A stretch of DNA of 64,000 bases, from the IMG/VR virus record IMGVR_UViG_3300028549_003773, one strand, 5' to 3'. The position numbers and the translations under genes are program-made. Below are positions 35,041-60,026 of this stretch, piece after piece. The DNA is from a virus (lineage: Duplodnaviria > Heunggongvirae > Uroviricota > Caudoviricetes). The notes beneath the pieces are model-generated. The model saw only the letters and a list, made by a program, of their open reading frames with translations. It made no database searches and was not told the origin of the DNA. Position 1 is the stretch's first letter. Every line of letters starts with the position of its first letter.

Positions 35041-35051
35041 ATATGATTTTT

Positions 35052-35110: not shown

Positions 35111-35140
35111 AAAAACTAAAAAATAAATATTACTAAAATT

Positions 35141-35911: not shown

Positions 35912-35928
35912 CTTAACAGGAATAATTT

Positions 35929-37193: not shown

Positions 37194-37408
37194 ATAAAAT
37201 GGACGATTTTGAAAACAATAAAAATAAATACAACCTAAACAAAAAACTGAAACGTGATGATAATGATAAAAAACGTATAAAAAGCCCTATTAATAAAGGG
37301 AGTGTACGTACACAAAGCAAGGAATCATTACGAAGGTATATCGATACTTATGACAACGAAGACCCAGAAGATTTTGATGATTTTGAGGATTTGTCGGGAG
37401 GATACTAA

Positions 37409-37843
37409 ATGTATACTACATTAAACACAACAGATTTAGAAGAATTTAAAAAATGTAGATTTGTCGTGTTTGATTACGTAGAAAACGAAAATCTTCGAAA
37501 AAATGGTACAGAACAGTTTAACATTTTTGTAGGTAACAACAAAAATGCATTCGTAGATAAGAAAAGACCTTTATTGTCCGGATTCTATTCCGAACAAGAC
37601 CGTATACTAATACTTAAAAATATATTTTCTCCAGTCAAAGACAAATTAGAAGATGATTTAAGTTATTTTAGAGTATTTTGTGATATGGTTATAGAAGAGT
37701 TCATCTTACTTGGAAAATCGAGAAACCTGACTTCATTAATAATTCATACAAATGAAGAGATATTATTAGAGTCTTTGTTTTCGTTCGATTTTAAAATTAA
37801 ATGTATAGGAAATAAATTTTATAAGGCATTTAAATCAATATGA
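37409..37843 (+). CDS. hypothetical protein
   Basis: 144 aa; ATG overlaps the previous stop. Confidence 0.5.
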   Translation: MYTTLNTTDLEEFKKCRFVVFDYVENENLRKNGTEQFNIFVGNNKNAFVDKKRPLLSGFYSEQDRILILKNIFSPVKDKLEDDLSYFRVFCDMVIEEFILLGKSRNLTSLIIHTNEEILLESLFSFDFKIKCIGNKFYKAFKSI

Positions 37844-39420
37844 TTACAAAATCTGCAGTAAAAATAGAAACATTTAAAGCTAAAGATCATTTAGCAGAAA
37901 TTTACGGAAGCCCTCAAATGACTTTTTCTTTCTTGTCAGCTCCAAAAGAAGGTAATAAGCAATGTTGTCTTCCGGTAAGATGCAGAGACTTTTTACAAGA
38001 TGCTATTAGAGCAACTTTAACAAAAAAGCCAGCTTCGATATATGGTTTTAAGTTTGATTATGAAAAGAATCCAAAGCTTGACATTTTAAGAACACGTATG
38101 TTGATTAACATACCGAAAGAAAGAACAGTACTAAAAACGGCAGATAAAATTATTGAAGACGGTTTAAAACTTATTCATTATTACGAAAATTTGGCTGGTA
38201 TAGTAACAAAAACTACTGTAAAAAGCAATGAAGAAGGTTACGTAGTAGTTGGTAGTAACTTTTGGATGTTTTCACCTGCTGTAATATCATTATACACGTT
38301 ACTGTTTAGATTGGGCGAGTATGATCTAAAATTTGAAACAGATAAAGATGACTTAGTAAAAGCATATGAATCTCTAGTAAATAAAAAAGAAACATATTCA
38401 GATTATGCCATAGAGTACCTAAGAGAAGTTTATAAAGTCTTGGAAGATTTTGTAAGATACTATAAACTTTCCATAGATGGGAAAAAATTTGATAATATAT
38501 ACTATGAAGATATCCCAATACGTAGCTTTCATGGTAATTCAGGTATTGTTTCTTTTTGTAATACAAATAAAGACGGTTTGTATAAAGAACAGTATGCAAA
38601 ATTCAAAGATTACATTGAAACTTCTATCAATGTACCAAGTATAGTATTTCCATATGGTGGTTTTGCGTATGTAACAACTCATTATGCTTCTAACAACTTA
38701 TACTTCGGATTGTTAAATGCTGAGGATAAGATTGTAACTGAAAGTTTAGATTCATGCAGAGAAGTAGTGTGTAGTAGATACAGATACCACTTAACTAAGA
38801 ATAAAGGTTTGACAAAAACAAAGTTGTTGGTTACAGCTTCAGGCATTTTAGATATTCCAACTAGAATTAAAAATTTTAAAGAAAAAATATTTTTTGCTAA
38901 AAGATTTGTCAACCATTTTGAAAAACAAGCTAATATACCATTGTCTAAAATATCATTGGTGTTTTTAAAAAGTAATAGTAGTAAAATTAAACAATTTTCA
39001 GCAATATTAACAGGAGATGCTGCGTGGGTTAGTAGTCCTGTAATGTTATCTACTTATATATTTTTGTTAAGAGTATCTTTTAAGACTTACGAAAAATTTG
39101 AAAATAAAGATAATATAACAGATGAAAATATAGCCAAGGCTTTTGATATTGATGTAAAACCAGGACTTTACAAAGTAGTAATAAGTGATCAAGCTATTTT
39201 TAAAGGTTATATAGATCAAATAAAGTTATTAATGGTAGAACGAAAAACTTTGTTCTTGAGTAAAGAACCAGCTATAAACTTTTTGACTCATGCTGATAAT
39301 GTGCCTATGAATAGCAGTAAAGTAGGAGTAGTTTCTTTACTTAAGAAAACAACAATAGATAAAACATTACTAAATAAATACGAGGAGTTGTTAAAAACAT
39401 GTCAAACAGGAGCACAATAG
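37840..39420 (+). CDS. hypothetical protein (526 aa)
   Basis: large ORF, start/stop-coupled to both neighbours; no motif recognised. Confidence 0.55.
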   Translation: MITKSAVKIETFKAKDHLAEIYGSPQMTFSFLSAPKEGNKQCCLPVRCRDFLQDAIRATLTKKPASIYGFKFDYEKNPKLDILRTRMLINIPKERTVLKTADKIIEDGLKLIHYYENLAGIVTKTTVKSNEEGYVVVGSNFWMFSPAVISLYTLLFRLGEYDLKFETDKDDLVKAYESLVNKKETYSDYAIEYLREVYKVLEDFVRYYKLSIDGKKFDNIYYEDIPIRSFHGNSGIVSFCNTNKDGLYKEQYAKFKDYIETSINVPSIVFPYGGFAYVTTHYASNNLYFGLLNAEDKIVTESLDSCREVVCSRYRYHLTKNKGLTKTKLLVTASGILDIPTRIKNFKEKIFFAKRFVNHFEKQANIPLSKISLVFLKSNSSKIKQFSAILTGDAAWVSSPVMLSTYIFLLRVSFKTYEKFENKDNITDENIAKAFDIDVKPGLYKVVISDQAIFKGYIDQIKLLMVERKTLFLSKEPAINFLTHADNVPMNSSKVGVVSLLKKTTIDKTLLNKYEELLKTCQTGAQ

Positions 39421-40310
39421 GTACCGATCCAGAATTTTTTGTAAGAAATAAAGAAGATGGTAAATTTGTAAATGCGGAAACAATGTTTCCAGGAACAAAA
39501 GAGAATCCTCATCTAATGAAAAGTGGTGCTGGACTACAAACCGACAATGTAGCAGTCGAATTTGCAAGCCCTGTAGGAAAAGATGGTAAAGATTTAGTTA
39601 AAAAATTAAGAAAAACATTTAAAGAATTGTTTTTGATTCTTCCTAAAGATAAAATATTGGATCTTTCACCATCGGTGTTATTTCCAGAAGATGAGTTGCA
39701 GACAGAGCAAGCACAATTGTTTGGGTGTTCCCCAAGTTATTGTGCATGGGATTTGGTAGAAAATGAAAAACCTAATGCAAAATTCAGTAACCTTAGAAGT
39801 ATAGGTGCCCATATCCATATTGGTAAATGCGATGGTGATGGTAATGACTTTCTATTGGACCCGTATGGTAAGATAGACACTGTAAGGATGTGCGACTGCT
39901 TGCATGGTATAATAAGCGTAATTTTAGACTCTTCAAAAGAAAGTGTAATGAGAAGAGAATTGTACGGTAAAGCTGGAGAGCATAGACCAAAAGAATATGG
40001 TGTTGAATATAGAACATTGTCACCGTTTTGGATGAAGAGTCCGAATCTGGTAATGCTTATAGACTCATTAACTATGGATGCATTACGATTGGTTAGAGAA
40101 GGAAAAAACAGTGACTTAATAGATGAAATTGGTGGCGCTGATGTTATACGTAATATCATAAATAATGGTGATATAAAATCAGCCGAAACAGTAATAGACA
40201 ATATATTAGTAAAATATATGTCTAAAGACTCAAAGTACTTTTTTGAAGAGTGTAGATCAGCTATTGATACTTATTCTTTCACAGAAGAGTGGCAAATAGC
40301 CACTAAATAA
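39399..40310 (+). CDS. amidoligase, glutamine-synthetase/GCS2-fold carboxylate-amine ligase (copy 1)
   Basis: N-terminal IGTDPEFFVRN resembles the G-x-E-E-E-F-x-L-V-D signature of YbdK/GCS2 ligases; central GAHIHIG; same two landmarks recur in three paralogs downstream. Confidence 0.6.
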   Translation: MSNRSTIGTDPEFFVRNKEDGKFVNAETMFPGTKENPHLMKSGAGLQTDNVAVEFASPVGKDGKDLVKKLRKTFKELFLILPKDKILDLSPSVLFPEDELQTEQAQLFGCSPSYCAWDLVENEKPNAKFSNLRSIGAHIHIGKCDGDGNDFLLDPYGKIDTVRMCDCLHGIISVILDSSKESVMRRELYGKAGEHRPKEYGVEYRTLSPFWMKSPNLVMLIDSLTMDALRLVREGKNSDLIDEIGGADVIRNIINNGDIKSAETVIDNILVKYMSKDSKYFFEECRSAIDTYSFTEEWQIATK

Positions 40311-40338
40311 AAAATCATTAAACATAAGAGAGATAATA

Positions 40339-41121
40339 ATGAAAATTGCAGTACCTATTTTTAGTGGTGACACAAGACTGTCTATTAATACGGCCTATTT
40401 GAACTATGTAAAATCGGCTAATATGGAGCCAATTCTTGTAAATGAGTTTAATAATCTACAAGAAATTGCGCAAGTTTGTGATGGTTTGCTACTACCAGGT
40501 GGAATTGATATTGAACCTACTTGGTATGGTGAAGAGAACGAAGCAAGTGACGGTTGTGACCCTGAAAGAGATGATTTTGAGCGAGCTGTTTTTCATGCTT
40601 TTATAAATAATGAAAAAAAGGTATTCGGAATTTGTAGGGGCTTCCAATTAATGGTAAGAGAATTTCTTAATGAGTACAAAGATGGCTGCAAAGGTTTATA
40701 TTATTGTCAGCATATCAACGGTCATTCATTGGCTTCTTCAAGAAATGCTCGAAGGAGTACACCGACACATAGCGTAAGTATAGTAACTAAAGCACTATAC
40801 AATATTCCAGCTGTTGAAGGAAAAAAGAGTAGTAGAATGTTTGTAAATTCTATGCACCACCAAGCTTTGCTTGCAGAACCACACAGATTTTCGTTTGTTA
40901 TACAGCAAAATGAAGCAAGTTTTCATTGCATTGCCGCCAGTGATGCAGGCATCAGCAAAGAAATGAATATGGCAGTTGTAGAAGCGGCTGACATGATGTT
41001 TCATGGTGTTACTGTAAGAGGTGTTCAGTGGCATCCTGAAGAACTACTTGATGTTGCTCTGCTAACTAATTACTTTACTGGAGCAGTTGCCGATGGAGCC
41101 AAAATCAAGTTACACAGGTAA
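40339..41121 (+). CDS. class-I glutamine amidotransferase-like / gamma-glutamyl hydrolase (C26 peptidase) family
   Basis: LLLPGGIDIEP, GICRGFQLM (nucleophile Cys), VQWHPEE (His-Glu dyad). Confidence 0.7.
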   Translation: MKIAVPIFSGDTRLSINTAYLNYVKSANMEPILVNEFNNLQEIAQVCDGLLLPGGIDIEPTWYGEENEASDGCDPERDDFERAVFHAFINNEKKVFGICRGFQLMVREFLNEYKDGCKGLYYCQHINGHSLASSRNARRSTPTHSVSIVTKALYNIPAVEGKKSSRMFVNSMHHQALLAEPHRFSFVIQQNEASFHCIAASDAGISKEMNMAVVEAADMMFHGVTVRGVQWHPEELLDVALLTNYFTGAVADGAKIKLHR

Positions 41122-41334
41122 GCTATCTTGGACAGTTACTGTAAAAATGACTTCTGGAGTTTCACATATAAGTTCGATTTCGCCACCACAATTGAATGCT
41201 TTTAGGAAAAAATTTCCAGAAAAGCTTGATATGGAAGCCCCAGATATCTTAAACAAATACATATTTCCACTTGTAAAACACGACTACTCATCAGTAGGGA
41301 CAATAGTGTCAATTAATATTAAATCGGGATTTTA

Positions 41335-41715
41335 ATGAGCGAATTAAAAGTTTTTGTTTATGGTACTTTAAAAGTAGGTGGAAAATTTGCTGCCACCTAC
41401 GATAAAGTAAGAAAAAGTGTAAAAGTTGGCAAAATAAAAGGTACATTATATAATTTAGGCTTTTACCCAGGAGTAAAACTCGGTGGTGATAGTGTAGTTA
41501 TTGGGGAAGTACATACTTACACTAATAAAGAAGAAGTTGAAAAGTCATTGGATAGATTGGAAGGATATTACGGAACTGGTAATAAATCAAATCTTTATAA
41601 TAAAGAAACAGTAAAAGTAAGCACAGACGATGGAGATGAAGACTGTCTCGTATATGAGTACAATAACTTTATTGAAAATAATAGAATAATTCCAGAGGGA
41701 GTTTGGAAAGTATGA
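41335..41715 (+). CDS. gamma-glutamyl cyclotransferase (GGCT/AIG2-like)
   Basis: VFVYGTLKVGG ... LYNLGFYPGV ... VIGEVHTY ... LDRLEGYY is a typical GGCT fold signature. Confidence 0.7.
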   Translation: MSELKVFVYGTLKVGGKFAATYDKVRKSVKVGKIKGTLYNLGFYPGVKLGGDSVVIGEVHTYTNKEEVEKSLDRLEGYYGTGNKSNLYNKETVKVSTDDGDEDCLVYEYNNFIENNRIIPEGVWKV

Positions 41716-41971
41716 AAATTAAAAGTATTACACTGAAAGGAAAGGAAGCTTACTTTGAATTAGGAGCAGGTGCCCCAGCGGTGACGAATATAAAATATTT
41801 AGAAGCTTCGATGGATTATGGTCAATTTGGTCATGAACCGATTTATGTAGTAAGGTTTACCGACCCGGCCAGCAGAGTGATTATTCCAGCAAGAAATGTA
41901 TGCATGTTTGAATTAGATACTAAAAAAGATGATGTAGCTGCAAAAGCTATCGAAAAACTTGGAGAGACTGC

Positions 41972-42652
41972 ATGAAAAAACTTATTTTGTTAGTAGCTGG
42001 ATATGGTTATGAGAAACCTTTTAAACAAATGGGTGAATTAGTAGAAGACATCGATTTGTTTATGCAATCGCCTGAAAAGTTCAAACTTGTTGTATTTACC
42101 GGTGGAGAAGATGTACACCCGGCAATGTATGGTCATACTTCACCAAAAGGTCTTTGTTATTTTAATGCGGCAAGGGATGTAAAAGAGCAAATAATTTATG
42201 AATTTGCTAAAGATAACAATATACCAATGACAGGTATCTGTAGAGGAAGTCAATTCCTAAATGTAATGGCCGGTGGTACATTAATGCACCATATAGATCA
42301 TCATGGAACAATGCATTATATTGAAACAATCGATGGTACAGTTATGAAAGTTACTTCAACACATCATCAAATGTGTGTGCCAGCAGAAGATGGCTTTGTT
42401 GTAGCTTGGTCTGAAACTAAAAGATCTGAAAGATATTTTGGCGATAAAGATGCTGAAGTAGCTTACGATGGTAAAGAAGTAGAGGCTATTTATTATCCCG
42501 ACAAGAAAATTTTCGCCGTACAATACCACCCGGAATACATGGATGATAAAAGTATGGGACTTACATGGTATAAGCAAGCTGTTCATGACCTGGTACATTC
42601 TACAACTGCTGAATTTAAGCGTAAGTATTTCAAACAGCAGATGGTAAAATAA
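41972..42652 (+). CDS. class-I glutamine amidotransferase-like / gamma-glutamyl hydrolase (second copy)
   Basis: VVFTGGEDVHP, TGICRGSQFLNV, VQYHPEYM. Confidence 0.7.
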   Translation: MKKLILLVAGYGYEKPFKQMGELVEDIDLFMQSPEKFKLVVFTGGEDVHPAMYGHTSPKGLCYFNAARDVKEQIIYEFAKDNNIPMTGICRGSQFLNVMAGGTLMHHIDHHGTMHYIETIDGTVMKVTSTHHQMCVPAEDGFVVAWSETKRSERYFGDKDAEVAYDGKEVEAIYYPDKKIFAVQYHPEYMDDKSMGLTWYKQAVHDLVHSTTAEFKRKYFKQQMVK

Positions 42653-42710
42653 AATAGGTAGTTAGTTGCTTTCTTAGTAACTAACTACTACAAATACGAG
42701 TGAAAAAAAA

Positions 42711-43238
42711 ATGTTATTTGAAAAAAATGTAGGTAAAGAAATTTTTGTACTTGTTGATGAAAGCAATAACCGTTGTTCTGCTACAATATATGACACAGCA
42801 GATATAGTGTTAAAGGCTTTTGCTAATAGATTGGCAACAAATATATCAGACGTAACTCTATATCATGGAGTACTATCAAAAGCATGCAGTATCCCAGATG
42901 ATGAAATAAGCTCAAACATAGACGTAATAATATTTATACCAGGTAGTGGTAATAGTTGTAAAACAATATCTTGCTTTAGTCTTGAGTATTTACAAAAATT
43001 AATACCTGCTATAGTTGGAAACCCGCCATCTAAACAAGATACCGATTACGTATCTATAATTGATGATACTCATAAAATACCAAAACAAAATATAGATAAT
43101 GTATACATATTTTATGGTTACTCCATAGAGTTACATTACACGTTTTATAAAACAGACTTGGATGAAGAAATTATATCTGGGAGTAAAAAAATTTATGCAA
43201 ACATTTCCTCAACTCAAACATACTCTGACGTATCATGA
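42711..43238 (+). CDS. hypothetical protein
   Basis: 175-aa ORF. Confidence 0.45.
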   Translation: MLFEKNVGKEIFVLVDESNNRCSATIYDTADIVLKAFANRLATNISDVTLYHGVLSKACSIPDDEISSNIDVIIFIPGSGNSCKTISCFSLEYLQKLIPAIVGNPPSKQDTDYVSIIDDTHKIPKQNIDNVYIFYGYSIELHYTFYKTDLDEEIISGSKKIYANISSTQTYSDVS

Positions 43239-43540
43239 TAAGAATTATTTCATATACAGAGGAAAGGCAGTTGGTTATTTAGATAGTAAACAATTCGCAG
43301 CACTAATGGAACATCCTGGAATTATGTCAAGAAAACTAAGTACGATGGAAACTAAAAGTTTTATCGACTTGGCTGATCCAAAGGATGCTATCGGAAATAG
43401 ATTAGTGTTTGTTATACAAGATTCCAAAGAAAGACAAGTAGCAATATCCAGCGTAATAAAAGAAGTTGATAGTTCATTAGATGGACAAGATGGACAATTT
43501 TCTTTCGTAGGTGAAGATCAATGTGAATTTTTCTTAGAGA

Positions 43541-44326
43541 TTGAAGGGGGGGCCTCTAATGATACTGTATAATTTTAAACCAATGCAGAAATTTATAGTT
43601 ACAGATGTACTATCTTCTTTAAAATACTCTATTGGTACTTATGGTCTGATTTATAATGCAGATCCAAGTGACAGTGAAATAAATGCTTCTTTAAGTGTAC
43701 TTGTAATAGGTAATGCTGATGAATTAATGAATAAACCTTTTTTCTCTGCTTTAAAAGTTCCAAACATAATTTGTAAAAGTTTTATGGAACATGGTTTATA
43801 TAATAAGTGTGATGATTCTATTCATAGTGAAGATTTAAAAATCAATTCTCTTCTGGATATACCAGATATAGACTTTTTATTCTTTATGCTTGCTAAAATA
43901 AGACATATAGAAAAGAGTATAAATTCCAGCAGTATGTATAGGGGACACTTGATTAATCATCCAAGATTAAAAAAGTTACTACGTGTGTATAACGATGCTG
44001 GGTCATTGAATGATGCTGCATTGAAACTTTTATATAAGCCACTTAAAGAGAAAAAGTATTTAATAGAAGAATTATTAAGAATGTCATCATTTATAAGCAA
44101 AGATATGGAATTAAGGGAAGAAGAGTACATGACTTCGTCACTAAAAAGTAAGATAGATTTTTGTAAAAGAACCGCAGTGTCCATTGCAGATGCAGCATTA
44201 CTTAAAGAATTAAATGAAATATCTTTAAAAAAATTTATGTCAACCAAAGAGCCGCCAAAAGATATGGAGAATGTGTATGCTGGAATTAGGAACAAAGATA
44301 ATAGTAATTGGTTCTGGCGTAACTAG
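43541..44326 (+). CDS. hypothetical protein
   Basis: 261-aa ORF. Confidence 0.5.
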   Translation: MKGGPLMILYNFKPMQKFIVTDVLSSLKYSIGTYGLIYNADPSDSEINASLSVLVIGNADELMNKPFFSALKVPNIICKSFMEHGLYNKCDDSIHSEDLKINSLLDIPDIDFLFFMLAKIRHIEKSINSSSMYRGHLINHPRLKKLLRVYNDAGSLNDAALKLLYKPLKEKKYLIEELLRMSSFISKDMELREEEYMTSSLKSKIDFCKRTAVSIADAALLKELNEISLKKFMSTKEPPKDMENVYAGIRNKDNSNWFWRN

Positions 44327-45059
44327 AAAAGCTGGGCCTCGTATTGGTAGTATTGGTTACATACTTAATATTGAGAATTTTGGTGAAGATTTAGCAGAAC
44401 ATAATGAGTATATAAAATTTTTCGCATCCGTATTATTTACAAGGTATGGTTTTCAAAAGAAAGAAAGACAAGAAATAAAAAGAGTCTGTTTATTCGTCCC
44501 TAATTTTTTCTGTCAAGATAGTAAAGAAATCCCTTTTAAAGTTCCAAAAATATATAACAACTTACCAGTTGTAGAACTTGCCCCTTTAGCAAGTTCTTTA
44601 GAAGAACACAAATTCATGCAACTTGCTATTAATCTATGCGTTAAAACAAAAACAAATACAAACTTATGTAAAGTAGCTTTTGATATAAGAGACAATGTTT
44701 TTGTAAAACCAGAAGTATTTAAAAACAAGTTAGCTGCTTCAACAATAATAGCATTACGCGACTTGCTATATTCAAAAACAAATATAGCTATCATAAATAA
44801 GTTAAAATCACTGTATAATACAGATAGAAAATCTTATGAAGAGTTATTAAATTTAACAATAGAGTTAAACATTTTATCAGGAAAAAAGATAGAATGTAAA
44901 CAGATACATGAAATACAAATGGTGTATCTAAACAACCTATTTAACGGTTTACCCTTGTATTTTGAACTAAAGTATTTCTCCTACGTAAAAAAAGTAATGC
45001 CGTTCTACAATGCCTTTAAGTATAGTCTGCTAGAAAAAGCAATAAAACTAAATAAATAA
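44271..45059 (+). CDS. hypothetical protein
   Basis: 262-aa ORF overlapping the previous gene by 56 nt. Confidence 0.5.
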   Translation: MCMLELGTKIIVIGSGVTRKAGPRIGSIGYILNIENFGEDLAEHNEYIKFFASVLFTRYGFQKKERQEIKRVCLFVPNFFCQDSKEIPFKVPKIYNNLPVVELAPLASSLEEHKFMQLAINLCVKTKTNTNLCKVAFDIRDNVFVKPEVFKNKLAASTIIALRDLLYSKTNIAIINKLKSLYNTDRKSYEELLNLTIELNILSGKKIECKQIHEIQMVYLNNLFNGLPLYFELKYFSYVKKVMPFYNAFKYSLLEKAIKLNK

Positions 45060-45073
45060 ATATTGGAGATAAA

Positions 45074-48000
45074 ATGCTCAATGCACTAGATATGGTGATT
45101 GGAAATTTCGTTAGTCAATTCAATTCTAGAGTTTTAACAAGAGCAAGTGCTCAAACTTTTTCTGCAGTTTTAGACGTAGTAAATTCAGAAACTGAAGTAA
45201 TTTTTAAAATGAAACGTGATGAAACCCAGCACGTGATATGCATACCAAAACCCTACGTTAGAGATAACGTAGTTTTGGTATCTATCAATGATATTGAAAG
45301 ATCAGTATCAAAGTATTATTGGAAACTTCACAATAGAGTAATGAATTATTGTGATGTTATATATGAAGTACTTTTTGGATTTCCAGTGCATATATTGCCA
45401 GAAAGTATGTTAAAAAGCAATACTTCTGTTATGCAACAATTAAGATACGCCTATGAAAATAATAAGTTAGCTGTAACTACTAGGAGCATTCAGAAGAAAA
45501 TAAATCATATAGTAAATAATCTTCCTATGCATGAAACAAACATGAATTCTTTTATCATGAATCATAGGATAACTATTTTTGATTTAGAATTTGACGTATT
45601 AACAAATCCTGAAGAACAGCATGCTTATCAAGTAAAGAAAAACAAAGAATTTTTTGATACTGGTTGGTCATCTTTAGGCTTGTCTGATGGTTGTTTAGCC
45701 AATAAGAATTATATGTTGGATTATGATTTGAGGAAGCTAACACCATTTGGAAGTAACTTCCATAATCCTCAAAGAAATTTATATTCTACCTTGGGTATGA
45801 AAGGTGATGAAACTCCTCTTGTGCACTCTGAGGAAACTTTTCGCTTAGCCCAAAACGGTTTAACAAGAAAAGGTTGGAATTTATTTACAATATTTGTTGA
45901 TGTACCAGATGTATGGGAAGATCAACTTATGGTAGATATAAGACATTCAAATAAATACATTGAGTATACAAAGAAATGCATGTGCCATGGAAAAGCACTT
46001 GTAAAAGTTGGTGATATATTGTATACTAATGATCCTCTTTATGTAAATAATTCAAAAGAAGTAAAATCCTTTGATGTCCAATGTGACAGTGCAGTAGTAG
46101 AGAAAATAGAGGAAAAAGAAAACAATATAGGTGGTGCACTATTTCCAGTACTTTTGATAACTGTGAAATATAAACGCTATCTTAAAGATGGTACAAAGTT
46201 GACAAATCTCGCGGCTAACAAAGGTGTTATTCGTATGAGAGATTTAGGTTATGCAATTAATCCAGTAACAGGTAAACAACAAAAGATAGACGTGATAGTA
46301 TCAGCTAAAGCAGTACTGAAAAGAAAGAATTATACTCAAGTACTCGAAGCTTTATTGAATAATATCAACGATAACAATGTAGTAGTTATCCCAGAGAATT
46401 TGGTAATAACCGAAGAAGCAATATCCTCAGCATTAGTATCTTCAGGTCATAATGCTGATGGTACTTGGTCTTGTCACACATACTCTGGTGACTTCAGATG
46501 TGTTGCTGGTAATGTATTTTGGGGTGTGACACATGATGCGGATGATACAGTGTGGCGTTCAGGAGCTACACATGTTGAAAATGGTAGAGGTTTAAGAGAA
46601 GCTGGCTTGAAATTTTCTACAATAGAATTTAGAGCGTTGGCTACACGTTTTGGAAGAGATAACGCTTTAGAAAAAGAAATACTATCATACGCCCAAGGAT
46701 ATGCAGATGTAAAAGAATTGCTAAGTATTTTAAATTGTCAACTTGGCAAAAAAGACTTAGCATACACCACCAAGAACATCTTTGATATAGCTCCTCTAAA
46801 TCAAGAAGCTGGTATAATGTTGATGGAAGAAGAGTTAGTTGGTTCTATAGTAGATCCTAATATGGAAGATAATGGTTTCATGTTAAAACTTCCTGTAAAA
46901 TATCAAATAGTCTTAGATAGAAAATCGAACATATTGACATGTGGTTTCCCTGTCAAAGTAGAAGAAAAAGTAGGTAACAAAGCTGTAGGTAAAGTAATAA
47001 TTATTGATTCGTTGTATGTTCCTTATGCGAACCTTAGAAAATGCTGGAAGCATGACATAGGCAAAGTTGGTTTGAATGATATAGGTAACGCATTGAATAC
47101 TATAGTAGTTATGTCACATAGCTATTTGAAAGAAAACAGTAATATAACCTTATCAATGTTGTACTCTGCCATTAGTACTTATTTTTATACAGTATCAAGT
47201 AAATTAAGTACAAAAAATGGTGAGTTAAGTGTACACACTATGGCTGTAAGATACCCACATTCTGTGAAAGGTGTAGCAACTCTTAGTAATACTTTACCAC
47301 GTAATACAGTTAGAATACATAGTGTCATGGCTTCTGAATTAAAATTGGTTGAAGGAGACATAGTACTTGTAGAAAGATTCCCTTGCTTGGGTTTTATGTC
47401 ACTCAGACCCCAAAAAGTTATGATTACTGACGACCCATTGTGTAGATTTTCTATACAAGTAAGTGGAAATAGTTTAGGATCCATGTCTTTGGATTTCGAT
47501 GGTGATGTTATTTATTTGGCAGCTTTCTATTCTGAGGCTTCCAAAAATGCACTCAAGAAAGAGTTAAATACACCTAATGAGCACTGTATAAAATATATAG
47601 AGGCTTTTAATTCAAAAATGGGTGTACCAAGACTTATGGAAATGTCATTACAGGATTACAAAATAGCACCTTTTGATAAGCTGACTTCAGATACACATGC
47701 TGAAATAGTTAGTAAACTTACAGGTGTAAAAAGTAATACTGGTCCAGTTGTTGCTTTGGCTTACAATCTTTTACGTATTATGGAAAATTCGGAATTAGCC
47801 GGAAATCAGGAAATAGAAAGTGGTATAGAAGTTTTTATAGATACTGTAGCTAACTCTGTTTTTAAGCAAAAACATGGTGTTAAGTCTTTACATAAGATCG
47901 TTATGGATGCAGTGTGTTCAGCTGACTTAGAAACTTTAGTTAGTGAAGGATTCGACCAAAAAATATCAGAAATAATATGTAGTAAGATACGCGAAAAAGC

Positions 48001-48337
48001 TGCTCAAATAGGAATTAAGGATGTAAAACAGTATCATAAATTAATTACAGAAGAAGGGGGTAGTAACGTAATTAATAGATTAGTACGTGAACAAAACATA
48101 CTGTACTTTACAAGTAGAGCTAATTTAGATAGTTGTAAGATTGTTAAAAATGTGGCAGATTTTGCAGTAGTGGATATACCAAGCAGTATCTTCACAAAAA
48201 TAATGAGTCTGAATTCAGCATTTGAGAAATCAGACTTGGCGGATTTAAATTCTTTGAAAAATCCTGAAGCATTTCATTATTATACCGGAGCTTTGAAAGA
48301 ACTAAATAGAATAATAAACACAGAAAAAAGTATTTAA
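45074..48337 (+). CDS. divergent multisubunit-type RNA polymerase catalytic (beta-prime-like) subunit
   Basis: ERFPCLGFMSLRPQKVMITDDPLCRFSIQVSGNSLGSMSLDFDGDVIYL aligns by eye with the beta-prime segment [43 protein letters not shown] (R-x-P-x-L ... P-x-x-V/L-x-I ... DFDGD); size 1087 aa. Confidence 0.65.
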   Translation: MLNALDMVIGNFVSQFNSRVLTRASAQTFSAVLDVVNSETEVIFKMKRDETQHVICIPKPYVRDNVVLVSINDIERSVSKYYWKLHNRVMNYCDVIYEVLFGFPVHILPESMLKSNTSVMQQLRYAYENNKLAVTTRSIQKKINHIVNNLPMHETNMNSFIMNHRITIFDLEFDVLTNPEEQHAYQVKKNKEFFDTGWSSLGLSDGCLANKNYMLDYDLRKLTPFGSNFHNPQRNLYSTLGMKGDETPLVHSEETFRLAQNGLTRKGWNLFTIFVDVPDVWEDQLMVDIRHSNKYIEYTKKCMCHGKALVKVGDILYTNDPLYVNNSKEVKSFDVQCDSAVVEKIEEKENNIGGALFPVLLITVKYKRYLKDGTKLTNLAANKGVIRMRDLGYAINPVTGKQQKIDVIVSAKAVLKRKNYTQVLEALLNNINDNNVVVIPENLVITEEAISSALVSSGHNADGTWSCHTYSGDFRCVAGNVFWGVTHDADDTVWRSGATHVENGRGLREAGLKFSTIEFRALATRFGRDNALEKEILSYAQGYADVKELLSILNCQLGKKDLAYTTKNIFDIAPLNQEAGIMLMEEELVGSIVDPNMEDNGFMLKLPVKYQIVLDRKSNILTCGFPVKVEEKVGNKAVGKVIIIDSLYVPYANLRKCWKHDIGKVGLNDIGNALNTIVVMSHSYLKENSNITLSMLYSAISTYFYTVSSKLSTKNGELSVHTMAVRYPHSVKGVATLSNTLPRNTVRIHSVMASELKLVEGDIVLVERFPCLGFMSLRPQKVMITDDPLCRFSIQVSGNSLGSMSLDFDGDVIYLAAFYSEASKNALKKELNTPNEHCIKYIEAFNSKMGVPRLMEMSLQDYKIAPFDKLTSDTHAEIVSKLTGVKSNTGPVVALAYNLLRIMENSELAGNQEIESGIEVFIDTVANSVFKQKHGVKSLHKIVMDAVCSADLETLVSEGFDQKISEIICSKIREKAAQIGIKDVKQYHKLITEEGGSNVINRLVREQNILYFTSRANLDSCKIVKNVADFAVVDIPSSIFTKIMSLNSAFEKSDLADLNSLKNPEAFHYYTGALKELNRIINTEKSI

Positions 48338-48349
48338 AAGGAGAAGTGT

Positions 48350-48706
48350 ATGGCAAAGAATATTGGTCTAAGTTTCAATAGGGTATCTCTTTTAGGAAGA
48401 GTTACAGGAAATCCAGCAGTCAATGGTGAATGGATTACTTTTGATTTGAAAACTACATTACCTAAATTGGTTGATGGTAAGTGGCAAGAAGCAGAAGTAA
48501 TGGTACCTATTTTGACAAACGACCCTAAGAAGGTAGAGACTATCAGCAATTTCGTGCAAAACGAGAGACAGCTTTACGTAGAAGGTTACATTGAAGCTTG
48601 GGAAGGTGGTTGTGGTGTTTTTGTTGGTCTTGTTAAACTTGGGTCAAAAACTATGTATGACCCAGAGCAACAAAATGGTCAACCTGCTGGTAGAAGAACA
48701 CCTTAG
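48350..48706 (+). CDS. SSB-like OB-fold ssDNA-binding protein (short)
   Basis: NRVSLLGRVTGNPAVNGEWITFDL resembles the SSB N-terminal strand pattern (NKV.LIGNLG.DPE); no acidic tail. Confidence 0.45.
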   Translation: MAKNIGLSFNRVSLLGRVTGNPAVNGEWITFDLKTTLPKLVDGKWQEAEVMVPILTNDPKKVETISNFVQNERQLYVEGYIEAWEGGCGVFVGLVKLGSKTMYDPEQQNGQPAGRRTP

Positions 48707-48804
48707 AGATTTTTGAATTAAATACTCGTAATGTGAGATAGCTACTATAGAAGCATACAAACTTTTATAGTAGCTATATAATTCAAAATCTTAAAGGAGA
48801 GTCT

Positions 48805-49206
48805 ATGACATCAAACGTAATACTAAAAAAAGAAGAAGTAATTGAGGTATCTGTAGAAAAACCTGTATCGTATGAAGACAGGTTAAAAGAACTAGAAATA
48901 AAAATGAAATCTATAGCACAAATGTTTTATATGTTCAAAAGAACAGGTATGCCTAAAAAAACTAAAAAAATAGTTGGTAATAACAAAAATGCTGAAGGTT
49001 TAGATTTAAATTCTTGTTTCATAGGTTATGTTGCAAATTCTAATTATCCATATGTATTGATTGTAAATGATGAAGGTTTATACAACATTGGAGAAAAAGA
49101 GTTTAAATCTCTAAAAGAGGCAACAAATTCTGTATTTGGTGACAATGCTGATGGACAAAGCTTGTGGCAAACTTTAGATGGAGTATTCATAAAAGAATTA
49201 ATATAG
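48805..49206 (+). CDS. hypothetical protein
   Basis: 133 aa; RBS taaaggagagtct. Confidence 0.5.
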   Translation: MTSNVILKKEEVIEVSVEKPVSYEDRLKELEIKMKSIAQMFYMFKRTGMPKKTKKIVGNNKNAEGLDLNSCFIGYVANSNYPYVLIVNDEGLYNIGEKEFKSLKEATNSVFGDNADGQSLWQTLDGVFIKELI

Positions 49207-49216
49207 CTGATAAACA

Positions 49217-50602
49217 ATGATTATAAAAGTAAGTAACACATTAACTGTAGATATAAAGGATGATCTACTACTGCAACTTGTAGTAGAAGATTTAACATAT
49301 GATAATCCTCTTTATAAAGAAGCTAAAAAAAGTGGTAGGTCAACAAGAGGACTAACACAGGTACTTAAAAATTTTACCTATGTTAATGGTAGTTACTTAC
49401 TACCTCGTGGATATTTTGAAAGACTTTATATTTTATCAAAAGAACTTGGAATACATGTAGAAATACAAGACGAAAGGTCAATAAGACCATTTGAATATGC
49501 ATATAAACATGATATAACTTTACGGGAATATCAATCAAAAGCTTTAAGAGGGTTAGTAAGTCATTCCGAAGGTGTTTTGTCAGCGCCAGCAGGTAGTGGC
49601 AAAACAATCATAGGTATCGCTGCTATACTTACATGTGGTCAAAAAAGCCTATGGATAACTCATACGAAACAACTTTTGTTTCAATTTGTCGATAGGCTTA
49701 AATCTTTAGTAAATATACCAGAATCAGACATTGGTTTAATATATAACGGAGATTGGGATACAGAAAAACCCATAACAGCCGCATTAGTTCAAACATTAAA
49801 AACAGATAATAAAAAACTTGCCAGTATATCTAATAATTATGGCACTATTATAGCAGATGAAGTTCACCATCAACCAAGTTCAACTTTTACAGAAGTTGTA
49901 ACTATGTTAAATCCATACTACTTGTATGGATTAACAGCAACTCCATTTAGAAGAGATGGTTTAGAAACACTGCTTTTTCAAAATATAGGACCTATTAGAC
50001 ATACAATAGATAGATCCGAAACATCTAGTAATATTATTGTACCAACAGTAATTAAAAGAATGTTAAAAACTTCTAACTTACCAGAAGAATTAACTTATCA
50101 AACCTTGTTAGCATTATTGACAAAAGATGATTACCGAAACAGTATAATATGTGCAGATGTAGTTAGAGAAGCAAAACTTGGTAATATATGCATAGTATTG
50201 ACGGAAAGAGTGTCACATGCAGAAATATTGTATAAGAAAATATTAAAACAATGGGACAAAGTTGGTATTATACATGGTAAACATTCTGACAAGCTAAGAG
50301 AAAAGACACTTACTAGTTTAAATAATGGGGAAATAACTGTATTAACAGCAACTACTCAACTACTCGGCGAAGGTTTTGATCATCCATCGTTAAATAGATT
50401 ATTTTTAGCTCAGCCTATAAGAAATCCAGCCAAGTGTGAACAATTAGTTGGAAGAGTTCAAAGGACAAGCCCTGGTAAAGTTGATGCTTTAATATATGAT
50501 TACATAGATGACCATGGATTAACTAAACACCAGTTTCAAAATTACGGAACAGGGAGTAGTAGATATAATGTTTATAAAAAACTAGGTTGTAATATAAAAT
50601 AA
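49217..50602 (+). CDS. superfamily-2 DEAD/DEAH-box helicase
   Basis: Walker A APAGSGKTIIGI; motif II IIADEVHH; C-terminal helicase domain TATTQLLGEGFD and QLVGRVQR (motif VI). Confidence 0.8.
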   Translation: MIIKVSNTLTVDIKDDLLLQLVVEDLTYDNPLYKEAKKSGRSTRGLTQVLKNFTYVNGSYLLPRGYFERLYILSKELGIHVEIQDERSIRPFEYAYKHDITLREYQSKALRGLVSHSEGVLSAPAGSGKTIIGIAAILTCGQKSLWITHTKQLLFQFVDRLKSLVNIPESDIGLIYNGDWDTEKPITAALVQTLKTDNKKLASISNNYGTIIADEVHHQPSSTFTEVVTMLNPYYLYGLTATPFRRDGLETLLFQNIGPIRHTIDRSETSSNIIVPTVIKRMLKTSNLPEELTYQTLLALLTKDDYRNSIICADVVREAKLGNICIVLTERVSHAEILYKKILKQWDKVGIIHGKHSDKLREKTLTSLNNGEITVLTATTQLLGEGFDHPSLNRLFLAQPIRNPAKCEQLVGRVQRTSPGKVDALIYDYIDDHGLTKHQFQNYGTGSSRYNVYKKLGCNIK

Positions 50603-50668
50603 TTTTTTTATTTACACATTGGTTTGTGTGGTAGTTTCTTTTAGTAATTTTTAAATTAAGGTATAAAT

Positions 50669-51772
50669 ATGGAATTAAAAAAATCTAGTACTATGTCAGC
50701 ATTACCAAGCGAAAATAATACAATTCGTATGTCAGAAGAACTACGAAAAAAAATGAACGTGTCTCCAGGAGATATTCTGGTTGTTAAAGGATTTCCGCTA
50801 CAAGTAAATAAACTTTTTGCAAAAGATATTTGTTCTAAAAACAAAGCATTTGTTTCTGAAAAAGTATTGAAAGAATTAGGTATAGAGACACATGAACTGT
50901 CTGTAGAACAACATGTGTCTATTGGGTGTGACCCAGAATTATTTTTAGTAGATACTACTACTAATAAGTTGTACAATCCAGGATTTATTGTAAAAAAAGA
51001 AGCAACTGTAGGTTACGATGGTATGTTAGCAGAGTTTAGGCCGCCACCAGATGTGGATCCAAAACAGGTGACTTACAATATATGGCAGCTTATAAAATCC
51101 CTAAAAAGTACATTAGAAAGTAAAGATCTTACTAATGTTAGAATGGTATCCAGATCAAGTGGTTGGGGTCTTTTTGCTGGTTTCCATGTACACCTAGGTA
51201 TCCCAAGAAATTTACTAAACCCAACAAAAGAAAATTATTTAAAAATTATACAAATCATAGTAAGTTCCTTAGATTATTACTTAGGTACTTTATCTGTGTT
51301 AGTAGAAAAAGATGATTACGAAAGAAGGTGTTCACCATTTACACCATATGGCAAAGTTGGTGATTTTAGAGCTGATAATCATATAACACTCGAATATAGA
51401 GTTCCTGGTGGGGCTTTGTTGAGTCACCCATATTTAACAGATGGGCTTTTAAATATAGCGTCTCTTATTACACACGATGTTATAGAGAGGGTGCGTATAA
51501 TTACAGATGATTTTCGTGGTGTTATTGATGACGATAAGGCGCTTTTGAAGCATATATACCCTAACATTGTTGAAACTACAAAAATGTATGATATTATATG
51601 TTCGCCAAACACAAACGCAGCAAGTATGGAGCTAGCTACCATACAAAAAGATTTAAGTTGTATGGTAAATTACGACTATTACAAAAAGTCTATAGATAGT
51701 TTTTATAATTTATTAAAAGTTAAAATATCAGATGATATACTAACAAACTGGGATAATACTTATGTACAATGA
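50669..51772 (+). CDS. amidoligase, GS/GCS2-fold carboxylate-amine ligase (copy 2)
   Basis: IGCDPELFLVD ... GMLAEFRPPP ... GFHVHLGIP parallels copies 1 and 4. Confidence 0.55.
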   Translation: MELKKSSTMSALPSENNTIRMSEELRKKMNVSPGDILVVKGFPLQVNKLFAKDICSKNKAFVSEKVLKELGIETHELSVEQHVSIGCDPELFLVDTTTNKLYNPGFIVKKEATVGYDGMLAEFRPPPDVDPKQVTYNIWQLIKSLKSTLESKDLTNVRMVSRSSGWGLFAGFHVHLGIPRNLLNPTKENYLKIIQIIVSSLDYYLGTLSVLVEKDDYERRCSPFTPYGKVGDFRADNHITLEYRVPGGALLSHPYLTDGLLNIASLITHDVIERVRIITDDFRGVIDDDKALLKHIYPNIVETTKMYDIICSPNTNAASMELATIQKDLSCMVNYDYYKKSIDSFYNLLKVKISDDILTNWDNTYVQ

Positions 51773-53378
51773 CAAGTGGAAATTTTTTAACAACTTACCT
51801 GGAAAAGAAGCGTTAAGCTCGGCTGAAGTGCAATATTGGTTAAGTATATTAAATAAAGTATTAAAAACAGGGGTAGAATTCGAGTTCAACTTGAAAGAAC
51901 CAAAAGGTTTTTGTAAAGGTGGAAGTGAAAGTTGTCCCTGCATAAAAATGACAGAAGATAATGATTGTTGGAAAGTATGTCTTTTACAAAATACATGTAA
52001 GAAGAAATTCAAAACACAAGAAGAATTTGAATTAAATTGTCATGGAAAGTTTTGTGTTAGTTTCAAGAGCGCTTGTATTTCCTGTAAATTTTCTAAAATT
52101 GATTGTACAAAATGTAATTATTTATTAGATACAAGTAGCGATCCTGAAAGTATAAGACAACAATTGAAAAATGCCTTTGACCCATCCAAAAGTTACGGCA
52201 ATTTATCTAAAAGTGGTGTACATAGTGTAGTTACCGATGGGTCACTTTTAGGTGGCGAGGGTAAAGAAAAAGGCGTAGAAATAATTACAGTTGGTCGAAG
52301 AATAGATTATTGGGAGTTTTATAACATGTTATCAAACATAACAAAAAACTCTATCAATAAAGGAGCATATGTAAATGAAAGGTGTTCGACACACATACAT
52401 GTTTTAGCTGGTTATTTAGATGCTGTTGAGAACAACAGTAATTTCAGAACAGTAAGTGAGTTAGAAAAACCTATGCCTCAAATAATAGTTGCTAATTTTC
52501 ATCAACTTTGTAGAAGGTACCAAAATGCTATTACTTGGATGTCTATGGGTTTAGATAATCCTGAGCATTTAACAAGATGGGAGAAATATAGAGTTTCAAT
52601 ACTTGATACTTCTCCAGTAACTATGTCTATGGAAGACATAATTCATAAATTAGAAGAAATAAGTTTCAAAAACAGAGGTAAGTACGCTTGGGTAAACTAC
52701 ATGTATTCTAAATCAAAAGGTTCGTCAGCTGAATTAGAGAGATTTCATGTAGAGATGAGAGTATTAGATGGTATGATGTCGGCAAGTGTTGTTGCAGCAA
52801 TGTGTTGTTTATTCCATGCTTTAGTAATAAAAGCTGTAGAAATATCAAGATATGGTTTGCTAGAACTTGGTTCTCTTCCATGGTTTGAACAAACTAAGGA
52901 TATAAAAAGCAGGTTACTAAACAATGCACCAGAAGGATTTAGTGAGAATAGACTTTCAGATACCATGGATTTACTTCCAAAACATCAAGATATATTAAAA
53001 GTTGAATCTTATGACTTACTTAATCAAATAAAACATATACTTATGAGAACTGGACCTGCTTTTGAAGTATTAGAAAAATTGGCAGAAAAACCAGTAGCGT
53101 TTCATAGATGTGAAGGTAAGAACTGGGAAGAGATTGAAAAACATTTTGAAATTTTCAGAGAAGAAGAAACAATACTGGAACAAAAAATTAATGAAATAAT
53201 AGATTTCCGTATTGTTATGCGTTGTGAAAACGACAAAGTATGGAGTGATAAAGTTGCGGCATTACTTGAGAAAGAAGATATAGCTTCAAAAAATCAAATA
53301 CCTGAAATCATTTCAGCTAAGATTAGAAATGGTTTATGTATTTGGTCATCTTCTTTGGGTACTGTGTTGAAAGTATAA
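51762..53378 (+). CDS. Cys-rich N-terminal domain fused to amidoligase-like domain (copy 3)
   Basis: about 10 Cys in residues 50-120 (CKGGSESCPC, CxxC pairs); SVVTDGSLLGGEGKEKGVEII ... RCSTHIHV echoes the ligase GxHIH landmark. Confidence 0.45.
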   Translation: MYNDKWKFFNNLPGKEALSSAEVQYWLSILNKVLKTGVEFEFNLKEPKGFCKGGSESCPCIKMTEDNDCWKVCLLQNTCKKKFKTQEEFELNCHGKFCVSFKSACISCKFSKIDCTKCNYLLDTSSDPESIRQQLKNAFDPSKSYGNLSKSGVHSVVTDGSLLGGEGKEKGVEIITVGRRIDYWEFYNMLSNITKNSINKGAYVNERCSTHIHVLAGYLDAVENNSNFRTVSELEKPMPQIIVANFHQLCRRYQNAITWMSMGLDNPEHLTRWEKYRVSILDTSPVTMSMEDIIHKLEEISFKNRGKYAWVNYMYSKSKGSSAELERFHVEMRVLDGMMSASVVAAMCCLFHALVIKAVEISRYGLLELGSLPWFEQTKDIKSRLLNNAPEGFSENRLSDTMDLLPKHQDILKVESYDLLNQIKHILMRTGPAFEVLEKLAEKPVAFHRCEGKNWEEIEKHFEIFREEETILEQKINEIIDFRIVMRCENDKVWSDKVAALLEKEDIASKNQIPEIISAKIRNGLCIWSSSLGTVLKV

Positions 53379-53421
53379 AATAAAGGGGAGAGAAATACTC
53401 CCCTAAACAATTAGGTAATAT

Positions 53422-54171
53422 ATGGGCGGAATTTTTGGATTAACATTATTAAAGAATAACAAACTAGAGAAAGACAAAATTGGCAAAATTATTAATAGCT
53501 TGCTAAGAAATTTTCTAGGAGAGACAGTTTCAGCCAGTTTGGTGGCTACATCAGAAAGTAGAATAGATGTTATAAAAAGAAATCATAACTTGGCAAAATT
53601 CATAAATTCTCCAGAGTGTATCAAATTTTTAGCTGATGCTAGTGAAACACAAAACTTGTACTCAATTATAGGAAGTTTTAAACGTAGAGCTTTTTTAGTA
53701 AACACTGAAGTGCAGAATAGTATTATGACAAATATTGGTAAAACAGTATGTGTGAATAAAGATGTTTTTTTGTATAATTCTGAATCCACAAGCGAAAAAA
53801 TAGTTACGGTAATTGACAAAGTATTATCTGAAAAACAAAACGAAACACCAAGATTTCATAGTATGTTCGCAGAAGCTGCTAAAGTTGGTAATAACACACA
53901 AATGTACGCTTGTGTTAATGCTTTCTACCCATCATTGACGATTATTACGAAACACACGGTGGACCCATTATACATAAGTTTGTTTGAGGATTGTGGTGTT
54001 GTTGTCTTTTCTTCTCTACGAAATAGTCTTGTTGAATTAAAAGAAACTTTTAATTTGGGAGAAATGAAAGACATTGAAATATGTTCAAAAGAAGCCATGG
54101 TTATATGTGCTAAGAACAATACAATAAAAGAAGTAAACATTTTTGCAGGGTTAATAGGTACTACAATATGA
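53422..54171 (+). CDS. hypothetical protein
   Basis: 249-aa ORF within the ligase cluster. Confidence 0.5.
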   Translation: MGGIFGLTLLKNNKLEKDKIGKIINSLLRNFLGETVSASLVATSESRIDVIKRNHNLAKFINSPECIKFLADASETQNLYSIIGSFKRRAFLVNTEVQNSIMTNIGKTVCVNKDVFLYNSESTSEKIVTVIDKVLSEKQNETPRFHSMFAEAAKVGNNTQMYACVNAFYPSLTIITKHTVDPLYISLFEDCGVVVFSSLRNSLVELKETFNLGEMKDIEICSKEAMVICAKNNTIKEVNIFAGLIGTTI

Positions 54172-55718: not shown

Positions 55719-55783
55719 TCTATATAAATAAATCTGATAAAGGATATCCTTTAAAAATTATCAAAGCATAAAGGGAAAAATAT

Positions 55784-58931: not shown

Positions 58932-58935
58932 TAAA

Positions 58936-60003: not shown

Positions 60004-60026
60004 AGTAGTAAAGTAGGAGAGTCAGT

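Follow-up and report, generated by a model that had tools for sequence, protein, structure and literature searches.

A single gene with beta-like and beta'-like halves

At 45074..48337 on the plus strand of the window, the whole 64-kb stretch of DNA analysed here, lies a single open reading frame (ORF) that starts with ATG and encodes 1087 aa plus a stop, a protein of ~125 kDa as estimated from chain length. A Shine-Dalgarno-like GGAGA (45065..45069, +) precedes the ATG by 4 nt, and because the preceding ORF stops at 45059, no intergenic room is left for a promoter belonging to the gene itself. The initial annotation read this 1087-aa protein, with its DFDGD motif (aa 807-811, nt 47492-47506), as a highly divergent phage-encoded RNA polymerase (RNAP) of the multisubunit, or two-barrel, type, and our analysis supports that reading. 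A beta/Rpb2-like module (aa 1 to ~505; 45074..46588, +) and a beta'/Rpb1-like module (aa ~506-1087; 46589..48334, +) are both carried by the one ORF and not by separate core polypeptides, so that the whole gene (1087 codons plus stop) encodes a single-chain two-barrel RNAP.

In the N-terminal half, a beta-like double-psi beta-barrel spans aa ~265-420 (45866..46333, +), as located by Pfam Rpb2_6, by alignments to RpoB from the PDB and by the strand pattern of the structure model. The strand pattern also shows a beta-rich insert of ~80 aa (aa ~294-370) separating the two halves of the barrel; its position fits the SBHM ('flap') of the cellular-type clade, and it is far shorter than the bacterial flap. 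The claim that nothing was recognisable outside the DFDGD region proved wrong: Pfam RNA_pol_Rpb2_6 is matched at aa 329-464 (in 39 of the 41 family members, E 2e-10 at best), and aa 343-432 can be aligned with E. coli beta 1034-1121, GxK...NKGVI included. Overall, ~490 residues of this half superpose on beta/Rpb2. Residue conservation was counted over an alignment of 41 family members. The segment KLTNLAANK (46196..46222, +) contains K375 and K383, which align with the catalytic lysines K1065 and K1073 of E. coli beta at the same 8-residue spacing and are each present in 41/41 members. R417 (46322..46324, +), also in 41/41, aligns with beta R1106 (Rpb2 R1020), described in the literature as the funnel arginine. 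The acidic pair E282-D283 (45917..45922, +; E282 in 40/41 and D283 in 41/41) is the putative counterpart of Rpb2 E836-D837, which binds the second metal, with D283 placed by motif (WEDQ against FEDS).

In the C-terminal half, Pfam Rpb1_2 at aa 735-825, the model strands and a local alignment locate a beta'-like double-psi beta-barrel at aa ~722-818 (47237..47527, +). All 41 family members match RNA_pol_Rpb1_2, at best with E 9e-7, and none departs from the motif residues. The proposed alignment of R-x-P-x-L ... V-M-I ... DFDGD to beta' holds far beyond chance: aa 731-811 against E. coli beta' 387-464 give z=4.0, a score reached by 1 of 300 shuffles. It pairs R768 and P770 of R768-F-P770 (47375..47383, +) with R425 and P427 (Rpb1 R446 and P448), and D807, D809 and D811 of the metal-binding loop (47492..47506, +; 41/41) with D460, D462 and D464. 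A full-length profile comparison with E. coli beta' did not pick up the DFDGD region. Upstream, K714...R726-Y-P728...K732 (47213..47290, +; K714, R726 and P728 each in 41/41) resembles beta' KQGR...GKRVDYSGRSVI and is a putative switch-2 counterpart. A long helix at aa 912-935 (…VANSVFKQKHG; 47807..47878, +), seen in the model as a helix over aa 912-934 and whose H934 is invariant across the family alignment, is a putative bridge helix. Motif resemblance likewise suggests candidates for the trigger loop and clamp. For the fork-loop and funnel motifs, targeted alignments against E. coli beta and beta' fell short of significance, and both assignments are tentative.

The two double-psi beta-barrels are predicted to form the active site jointly, as in other members of the two-barrel superfamily. 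In the predicted structure such a barrel surrounds the DFDGD loop, the feature on which the initial annotation had said its reading would stand or fall, with the model least confident at the loop itself (pLDDT <50 at aa 804-806). Pfam scores for the window RNAP are below the gathering thresholds (20.8 against 23.4 bits and 18.6 against 25.3 bits). Eight residues are universally invariant in the superfamily, namely DxDxD, Rpb2-D837, Rpb1-R446/P448 and Rpb2-K979/K987, and their counterparts D807, D809, D811, D283, R768, P770, K375 and K383 all occur in 41/41 aligned members. The cellular-type clade is further marked by a Glu beside the beta-barrel Asp (Rpb2-E836), the funnel Arg (Rpb2-R1020) and an SBHM insert in the beta barrel; the family has both the Glu and the Arg. 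The family's structural similarity to beta/beta' also exceeds that to QDE-1, gp66 or gp64.

Relatives and genomic setting

A tblastn search of the RNAP protein against 50,697 GenBank phage records gave no match even at E 10, nor did a single-sequence scan of IMG/VR; an alignment-based scan of IMG/VR did recover relatives. The family comprises at least 400 sequence clusters, and relatives sit on contigs of jumbo-phage size (228-327 kb). An Arcobacteraceae MAG contains a copy with 62% identity. A split, two-gene form occurs only in distant relatives (L025 and L026). Capsid, terminase and tail genes went unrecognised in the window, whose phage nature is therefore judged from its IMG/VR relatives, from PHROG matches and from the organisation of its genes.

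The RNAP gene lies within a block of replication and metabolism genes that all run in the same direction, and in 22/22 related loci it is found between amidoligase/GATase genes and a helicase gene. This invariable link to a multi-amidoligase/GATase block could mean either that the RNAP has adapted to a template that is modified or that it undergoes modification itself. Directly upstream, in the window as in 13 of the 22 related loci, is a conserved 260-aa gene (44271..45059, +), possibly encoding an accessory factor; the protein has only 6 database homologues, and a structure model built from 6 sequences was unusable (pLDDT 48.8).

Around the RNAP gene, sigma-70-like promoter matches are depleted (63 versus 86 ± 8.6 in shuffles), which may indicate that host RNAP has little role there. 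Beyond this mild depletion, the scan for sigma-70 promoters and terminators around the gene was uninformative. The analysis as a whole identified neither a promoter-specificity factor nor a promoter. The initial annotation suggested that a phage-encoded RNAP might account for a conserved intergenic motif. The motif TAGTGGTAC, considered as a candidate promoter, is enriched and lies within hairpins of varying geometry, at times followed by a U-run; it is not present in the RNAP neighbourhoods of the relatives.

Proposed role and alternative readings

Very probably, the gene encodes a minimal single-chain two-barrel DNA-dependent RNAP, made of cut-down beta and beta' cores, that serves phage transcription apart from the host RNAP as a non-virion enzyme. 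The N-terminal half would be the reduced beta/Rpb2 core, whose barrel would grip the 3' end of the RNA as well as the incoming NTP through K375 and K383 and bind the second metal through E282-D283. The C-terminal half would be the reduced beta'/Rpb1 core, its barrel contributing R768/P770 and the DFDGD loop, in which D807, D809 and D811 would hold the catalytic Mg2+. The enzyme would belong to an uncultivated lineage of large phages, part of whose genome is most likely transcribed independently of host RNAP, presumably with promoter recognition of its own. Because the gene sits in a co-directional replication and metabolism block and lacks promoter space of its own, we infer a non-virion enzyme that would be made after infection and then transcribe middle or late genes; both its non-virion status and this timing are read from gene position.

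It is unlikely, yet the most serious alternative, that the same enzyme is packaged in the virion and, once injected, transcribes early genes in the manner of N4 vRNAP, crAss gp66 or P23-45 gp96. Many phage two-barrel RNAPs are virion enzymes, and the rarity of sigma-70-like matches near the gene would suit this reading. However, all 22 loci place the gene by amidoligase/GATase and helicase genes, away from structural genes, and the RNAP is not fused to tail or structural domains. Moreover, no second RNAP gene or paralogue that could act as a non-virion partner is present in the window, outside which most of the genome lies.

It is improbable that the enzyme, perhaps with a preference for ssDNA or RNA templates, belongs with the single-chain two-barrel polymerases of the YonO / QDE-1 / crAss gp66 clade. 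Like the window RNAP, YonO of the SPbeta prophage is a single phage-encoded polypeptide of ~100 kDa and a homologue of multisubunit RNAPs (msRNAPs). In published accounts, both the barrel insert and the Glu of the ED pair are missing from YonO-like proteins, which group with RNA-dependent RNA polymerases. Compared with the family, SPbeta YonO reached an hhalign probability of 0.4% and an hmmsearch score of -2.1 bits, with the catalytic regions unaligned in both; we therefore rejected membership of the YonO family, as sequence homology to SPbeta YonO is undetectable.

The initial annotation had further seen a beta'-like subunit that would pair with a separately encoded beta, and had named the ORFs at 37840, 53422 and 54168 as candidates; phiKZ/AR9 jumbo-phage RNAPs are of this kind. 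Split two-gene relatives do exist, and the closest PHROG families are split jumbo-phage subunits, but this reading is highly improbable given that the same chain holds the beta-like barrel, with its invariant K375, K383 and ED pair, and nearly the whole beta-like core. None of the three candidates has a Pfam, PHROG or family-profile match, and 53422 and 54168 are kept only in the closest relatives. The annotation is corrected in this respect: there is no missing beta subunit to seek. Finally, archaeal PolD DP2 has the two-barrel fold too, yet it is scarcely credible that the protein is a two-barrel enzyme of other activity, such as a DNA polymerase resembling PolD, or a structural relic without activity.

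The minimal single-chain RNAP proposed here would represent a widespread, apparently unnamed phage enzyme, though it may coincide with one of the 23 in-house single-subunit RNAP families of Drobysheva et al./Chaban et al. (e.g. Cyano_RUMTOR_01356). A cellular-type active site appears to be kept in ~40% of the mass of bacterial beta plus beta'. It is conceivable, though on balance doubtful, that the family is the smallest natural cellular-type beta/beta' core (~1,090 aa, without alpha, omega or sigma), that no characterised single-chain two-barrel enzyme comes as close to cellular RNAP in structure, and that with its fused and two-gene forms it marks out a large lineage of jumbo-sized phages not yet described. 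In that case it would provide a minimal model, and a tractable one, for msRNAP catalysis and a new deep branch from which to reconstruct the fusing, splitting and paring down of two-barrel RNAPs. Potential uses include the study of a minimal msRNAP by structural and biochemical means, biotechnology, as a compact polymerase unrelated to that of T7, and annotation of a 'dark' lineage of large phages.

Comparison with known systems

To our knowledge, only a few single-chain two-barrel RNAPs have been described: YonO, crAss gp66, P23-45 gp64/gp96 and the killer-plasmid Orf6. Each of these altered views on the evolution of transcription enzymes and on their minimal functional core. Among the closest known systems to the window RNAP are the catalytic subunits of cellular and viral multisubunit RNAPs (bacterial beta and beta'; Rpb2 and Rpb1; those of ASFV and vaccinia), to which it is structurally more similar than to P23-45 gp64/gp96 or phi14:2 gp66. 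P23-45 gp96 is fused to the tape-measure protein, and the window RNAP has no such fusion.

The suggested likeness to jumbo and crAss-like phage RNAPs was loosely right in that the relatives sit on jumbo-size contigs, but the enzyme is neither of the 4-5-polypeptide phiKZ/AR9 type nor of the ~2,200-aa gp66 type. The RNAPs of phiKZ/AR9, virion and non-virion alike, are built from 4-5 separate polypeptides, mostly as two paralogous sets, whereas here there is one gene. The virion protein gp66 of crAss-like phi14:2 has 2,180 aa and DFDID, in contrast to 1087 aa and DFDGD, and the window RNAP does not fit the gp66 type of a virion protein of at least ~2,000 aa with a DFDID-type motif in a virion/injection gene block. 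In an mReC contig, COG0085 and COG0086 are distinct genes that score 64-103 bits with Pfam, compared with a single gene, present once in the window and scoring 18-21 bits, for the RNAP studied here. Identity with the mReC lineage (Weinheimer and Aylward) was rejected, as mReC contigs carry two sets of separate beta and beta' genes with far higher scores.

Among predicted viral structures, the best Foldseek matches are uncharacterised proteins of Acinetobacter phage vB_AbaM_ME3 (E 4e-13, 815 aligned columns) and Microcystis phage MaMV-DC (E 6e-10, 944 aligned columns), which both match in fold over most of the chain without BLAST-level similarity. In design, the window RNAP resembles Orf6 of the yeast killer plasmid pGKL2 (Rpb2::Rpb1, 982 aa), as that protein is described in the literature: in both, a chain of ~1,000 aa begins with a beta-like half and ends with a beta'-like one, and in Orf6 about half of each subunit is deleted. 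Orf6 is encoded by a eukaryotic cytoplasmic plasmid, and the two fusions are likely to be independent.

Two barrel regions in one predicted polymerase

The open reading frame at 45074..48337 (+) was borne out, with 1087 codons, an ATG start and GGAGA 4 bases upstream. As the preceding ORF ends at 45059, there is no intergenic room for a promoter of its own. The initial annotation read the product as a beta'-like subunit from the segment leading to its DFDGD motif (aa 807-811, nt 47492-47506), and this likeness was reproduced: aa 731-811 align with E. coli beta' 387-464 (z = 4.0), pairing VLVERFPCLG with VLLNRAPTLH and DFDGD with DFDGD, at a score reached by 1 of 300 shuffles. The further statement that nothing is recognisable outside this region did not hold, as Pfam RNA_pol_Rpb2_6, the beta/Rpb2 barrel, matches aa 329-464 of the same protein (E 2.4e-4); RNA_pol_Rpb1_2, the beta'/Rpb1 barrel, matches aa 735-825 (E 2.4e-3), both sub-threshold. 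In PHROGs, a pair of families from jumbo phages, each labelled 'RNA polymerase beta subunit', covers these two regions as well, and phmmer against the PDB returned bacterial RpoB only, with an alignment spanning GDKLAGRHGNKGVI. Among the 41 aligned family members, Rpb1_2 is matched in all (best E 9e-7) and Rpb2_6 in 39 (best E 2e-10). The evidence supports a predicted single-chain, cellular-type two-barrel RNA polymerase (RNAP); the RNAP identity thus stands, and the lone beta' subunit gives way to a beta-beta' fusion. The separate beta partners once proposed at 37840, 53422 and 54168 lack Pfam, PHROG or RNAP-profile signal, and a second DxDxD motif of RNAP type is absent from all other ORFs in the window.

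Ruprich-Robert and Thuriaux describe eight residues invariant across all two-barrel polymerases (the three Asp of DxDxD, Rpb2-D837, Rpb1-R446, Rpb1-P448, Rpb2-K979 and Rpb2-K987), and further residues common to DNA-dependent enzymes (Rpb2-E836, Rpb2-R1020, Rpb1-K332, Rpb1-G750 and Rpb1-K752). By alignment, D807, D809 and D811 correspond to beta' D460, D462 and D464, R768 and P770 to beta' R425 and P427, K375 and K383, spaced by 8, to beta K1065 and K1073, and R417 to beta R1106. E282-D283 (WEDQ) is equated with FEDS of beta by motif only. K714, in a switch-2-like K-x-G...R-Y-P-x-S-x-K, is the putative equivalent of Rpb1-K332, and G884 and K886 (G-V-K) putatively represent the funnel G-x-K. Each of these residues is kept in 41/41 aligned members, the sole exception being E282 (40/41). 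The presence of the funnel Arg and of the ED pair makes the RNAP most probably DNA-dependent. Its active site would be formed between the protein's own two barrels.

Predicted structure, split relatives and family distribution

The AlphaFold2 model built from the 41-sequence alignment has a pLDDT of 87.8 and a pTM of 0.84, its single weak internal stretch being aa 804-806, immediately before the metal loop. A check of the predicted structure showed a barrel around DFDGD, which left the polymerase reading standing. Compared with known chains (two figures each), the model gave 20.0 and 491 for ASFV RPB2, 20.0 and 393 for plastid beta, 19.3 and 480 for NRPD2, 18.7 and 338 for the AR9 nvRNAP beta-like chain, 18.5 and 495 for Xanthomonas beta, and 17.9 and 327 for phiKZ nvRNAP chain C. 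Largest subunits (Pol I A190, vaccinia rpo147, archaeal A' and M. tuberculosis beta') gave 9.5-12.0 and 292-426, P23-45 gp96 10.6 and 323, QDE-1 9.9 and 482, P74 gp62 9.2 and 379, crAss gp66 8.8 and 535, and isolated or designed double-psi beta-barrel domains 8.4-9.0 and 79-81. In a Foldseek search against the whole PDB, all of the 50 top-ranking matches were beta/Rpb2 chains. By its predicted fold, the protein is more similar to subunits of the cellular type than to those single-chain enzymes that have been characterised. When predicted viral structures were searched, uncharacterised proteins from Acinetobacter jumbo phage ME3 and Microcystis phage MaMV-DC gave the best full-length matches.

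In two distant relatives, on independent contigs, the polymerase is encoded by two overlapping ORFs, a beta-like half followed by a beta'-like half. Locus L025 (281-2169) carries a 506-aa beta-like ORF and the beginning of the next, and locus L026 (1-2356) the tail of a beta-like ORF and a 537-aa beta'-like ORF; the downstream ORF opens with GTG or TTG before the upstream one has ended. Both break between profile positions 492 and 520, which locates the beta-like/beta'-like junction near aa 505 in the window protein. The two-ORF versions retain YED, K-x7-K, R-Y-P and DFDGD, and the lineage therefore exists in fused and two-subunit forms.

In a large protein database, the relatives number at least 400 as 90% clusters (1040-1220 aa; 41-70% identity for the best 120), all unnamed or 'hypothetical', on contigs of up to 327 kb. 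When 1.84 billion representatives were searched exhaustively by HMM, 247 matched, among them ~25 full-length 50%-identity clusters. Beyond the full-length family only weak matches were obtained, in three size classes: ~5,000 aa and ~2,000 aa, resembling TMP-fused and crAss-like RNAPs, respectively, as judged by size, and ~450-600 aa, with one half of the RNAP only. IMG/VR viral contigs with family members span 45-298 kb. Further members come from contigs that had been assigned to MAGs of unrelated taxa, with a 62% identical copy in an Arcobacteraceae MAG among them, a scatter that fits mis-binned phage contigs. No member was found among 50,697 GenBank phage records, and no NCBI-sourced member carries a name.

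Gene neighbourhood and repeated elements

By a greedy ORF call, 101 of the 111 genes in the window lie on the + strand. The RNAP gene is flanked by a dense block of peptide/amide-bond enzymes (39399-44326 and 50669-60461). Three phiEco32-type COOH-NH2 ligases (39399, 50669 and 57633), two peptidase-C26 GATases (40339 and 41972), a GGACT-like gene, annotated as such in relatives (41335), a class-II GATase (55784), a RimK-like ATP-grasp enzyme (58936) and a GNAT (60027) were identified. Much of this block is syntenic with the RNAP gene even in distant relatives; its substrate may be a protein or a metabolite, or perhaps DNA. The recognisable genes further include those for RuvB and a superfamily-2 helicase. 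In a set of 22 related loci, the helicase is found with the RNAP gene in all, the amidoligase at 50669 and a 538-aa protein (51762-53378) in 21 each, and the GATase at 55784 in 20; a 526-aa protein (37840-39420) accompanies the RNAP block in 12. Neither the 538-aa nor the 526-aa protein has any family match.

A 260-aa protein (44271-45059) is encoded just before the RNAP gene in 13/22 loci; it has six database homologues only and an AF2 model too poor for use (pLDDT 48.8). Its conserved N-terminal ~75 aa (GTKVxVIxS..K.GPRxGSIGYI...RYGF) look like a small KOW/SH3-type beta-barrel, with a helical C-terminus. The RNAP gene is immediately followed by that of a 118-aa protein (48350-48706), kept downstream in 11/22 loci, which has no Pfam or PHROG match; from its early sequence, ...NRVSLLGRVTGNPAV..., it looks like an SSB-type OB fold.

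Elsewhere, the window holds a set of RNA-repair and NAD-related genes (25155-34171 and 3072-3899), with an RtcB ligase at 25155, a metallophosphoesterase at 30148, a CCA-adding tRNA nucleotidyltransferase at 32840 and a DUF488-NADAR fusion at 3072-3899. There is one tRNA-Leu (63211-63293).

The 9-mer TAGTGGTAC has nine exact copies in the window, at 579, 1352, 2554, 3902, 5581, 5674, 29377 and 35070 on the + strand and at 1331 on the - strand; allowing at most one mismatch gives 31 matches, where 11.6 ± 3.4 would be expected. The copies are mostly intergenic, and six of the eight on the + strand precede the next ORF start on that strand by 56-90 nt; extended, the motif reads roughly GGGGAG-TAGTGGTAC-TGGYTTTTTGG. 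It sits in hairpins of varying geometry; that at 1352, a perfect inverted repeat with a trailing U-run, looks like a terminator. The 9-mer was not found in the RNAP neighbourhoods of related loci, and may be a promoter, a terminator or an RNA element. G+C in the first 8 kb is 0.39-0.45, versus about 0.26-0.37 elsewhere. Seven of the nine exact copies lie in this first segment (1-7000), which may form a module of its own or a block with different expression. A 421-bp intergenic gap contains a tandem array of the 25-bp unit AGTACAACAATTATAGTAGAAAAGC (8959-9115; 6.3 copies, nearly perfect), preceded (7800-8900) by recurring GTACTAC words and by palindromes, GGTACATGTACC and GCTACATGTAGC among them; the region could be origin-like or regulatory. 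Sigma-70-like promoter matches in 34000-51000 number 63, fewer than in dinucleotide-preserving shuffles (86.3 ± 8.6).

Expression and comparison with known polymerases

Since the gene is embedded in a block for replication and metabolism and has no promoter space, the RNAP would be made after infection, and may then take over part of phage transcription; its timing, host-factor independence and promoter are points that we infer. Among known types, the protein is not YonO-like in sequence, the phiKZ/AR9/mReC type is rejected as those enzymes are multi-polypeptide, and the crAss gp66 and P23-45 types are likewise rejected for the window protein. We found no paper describing the family. According to Chaban et al., a cellular-type clade of 23 families includes 'derivatives with fused DPBB domains', and the present family may already have been recognised in-house by these authors. 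In design, the predicted fusion parallels the killer-plasmid Orf6, an Rpb2::Rpb1 fusion.
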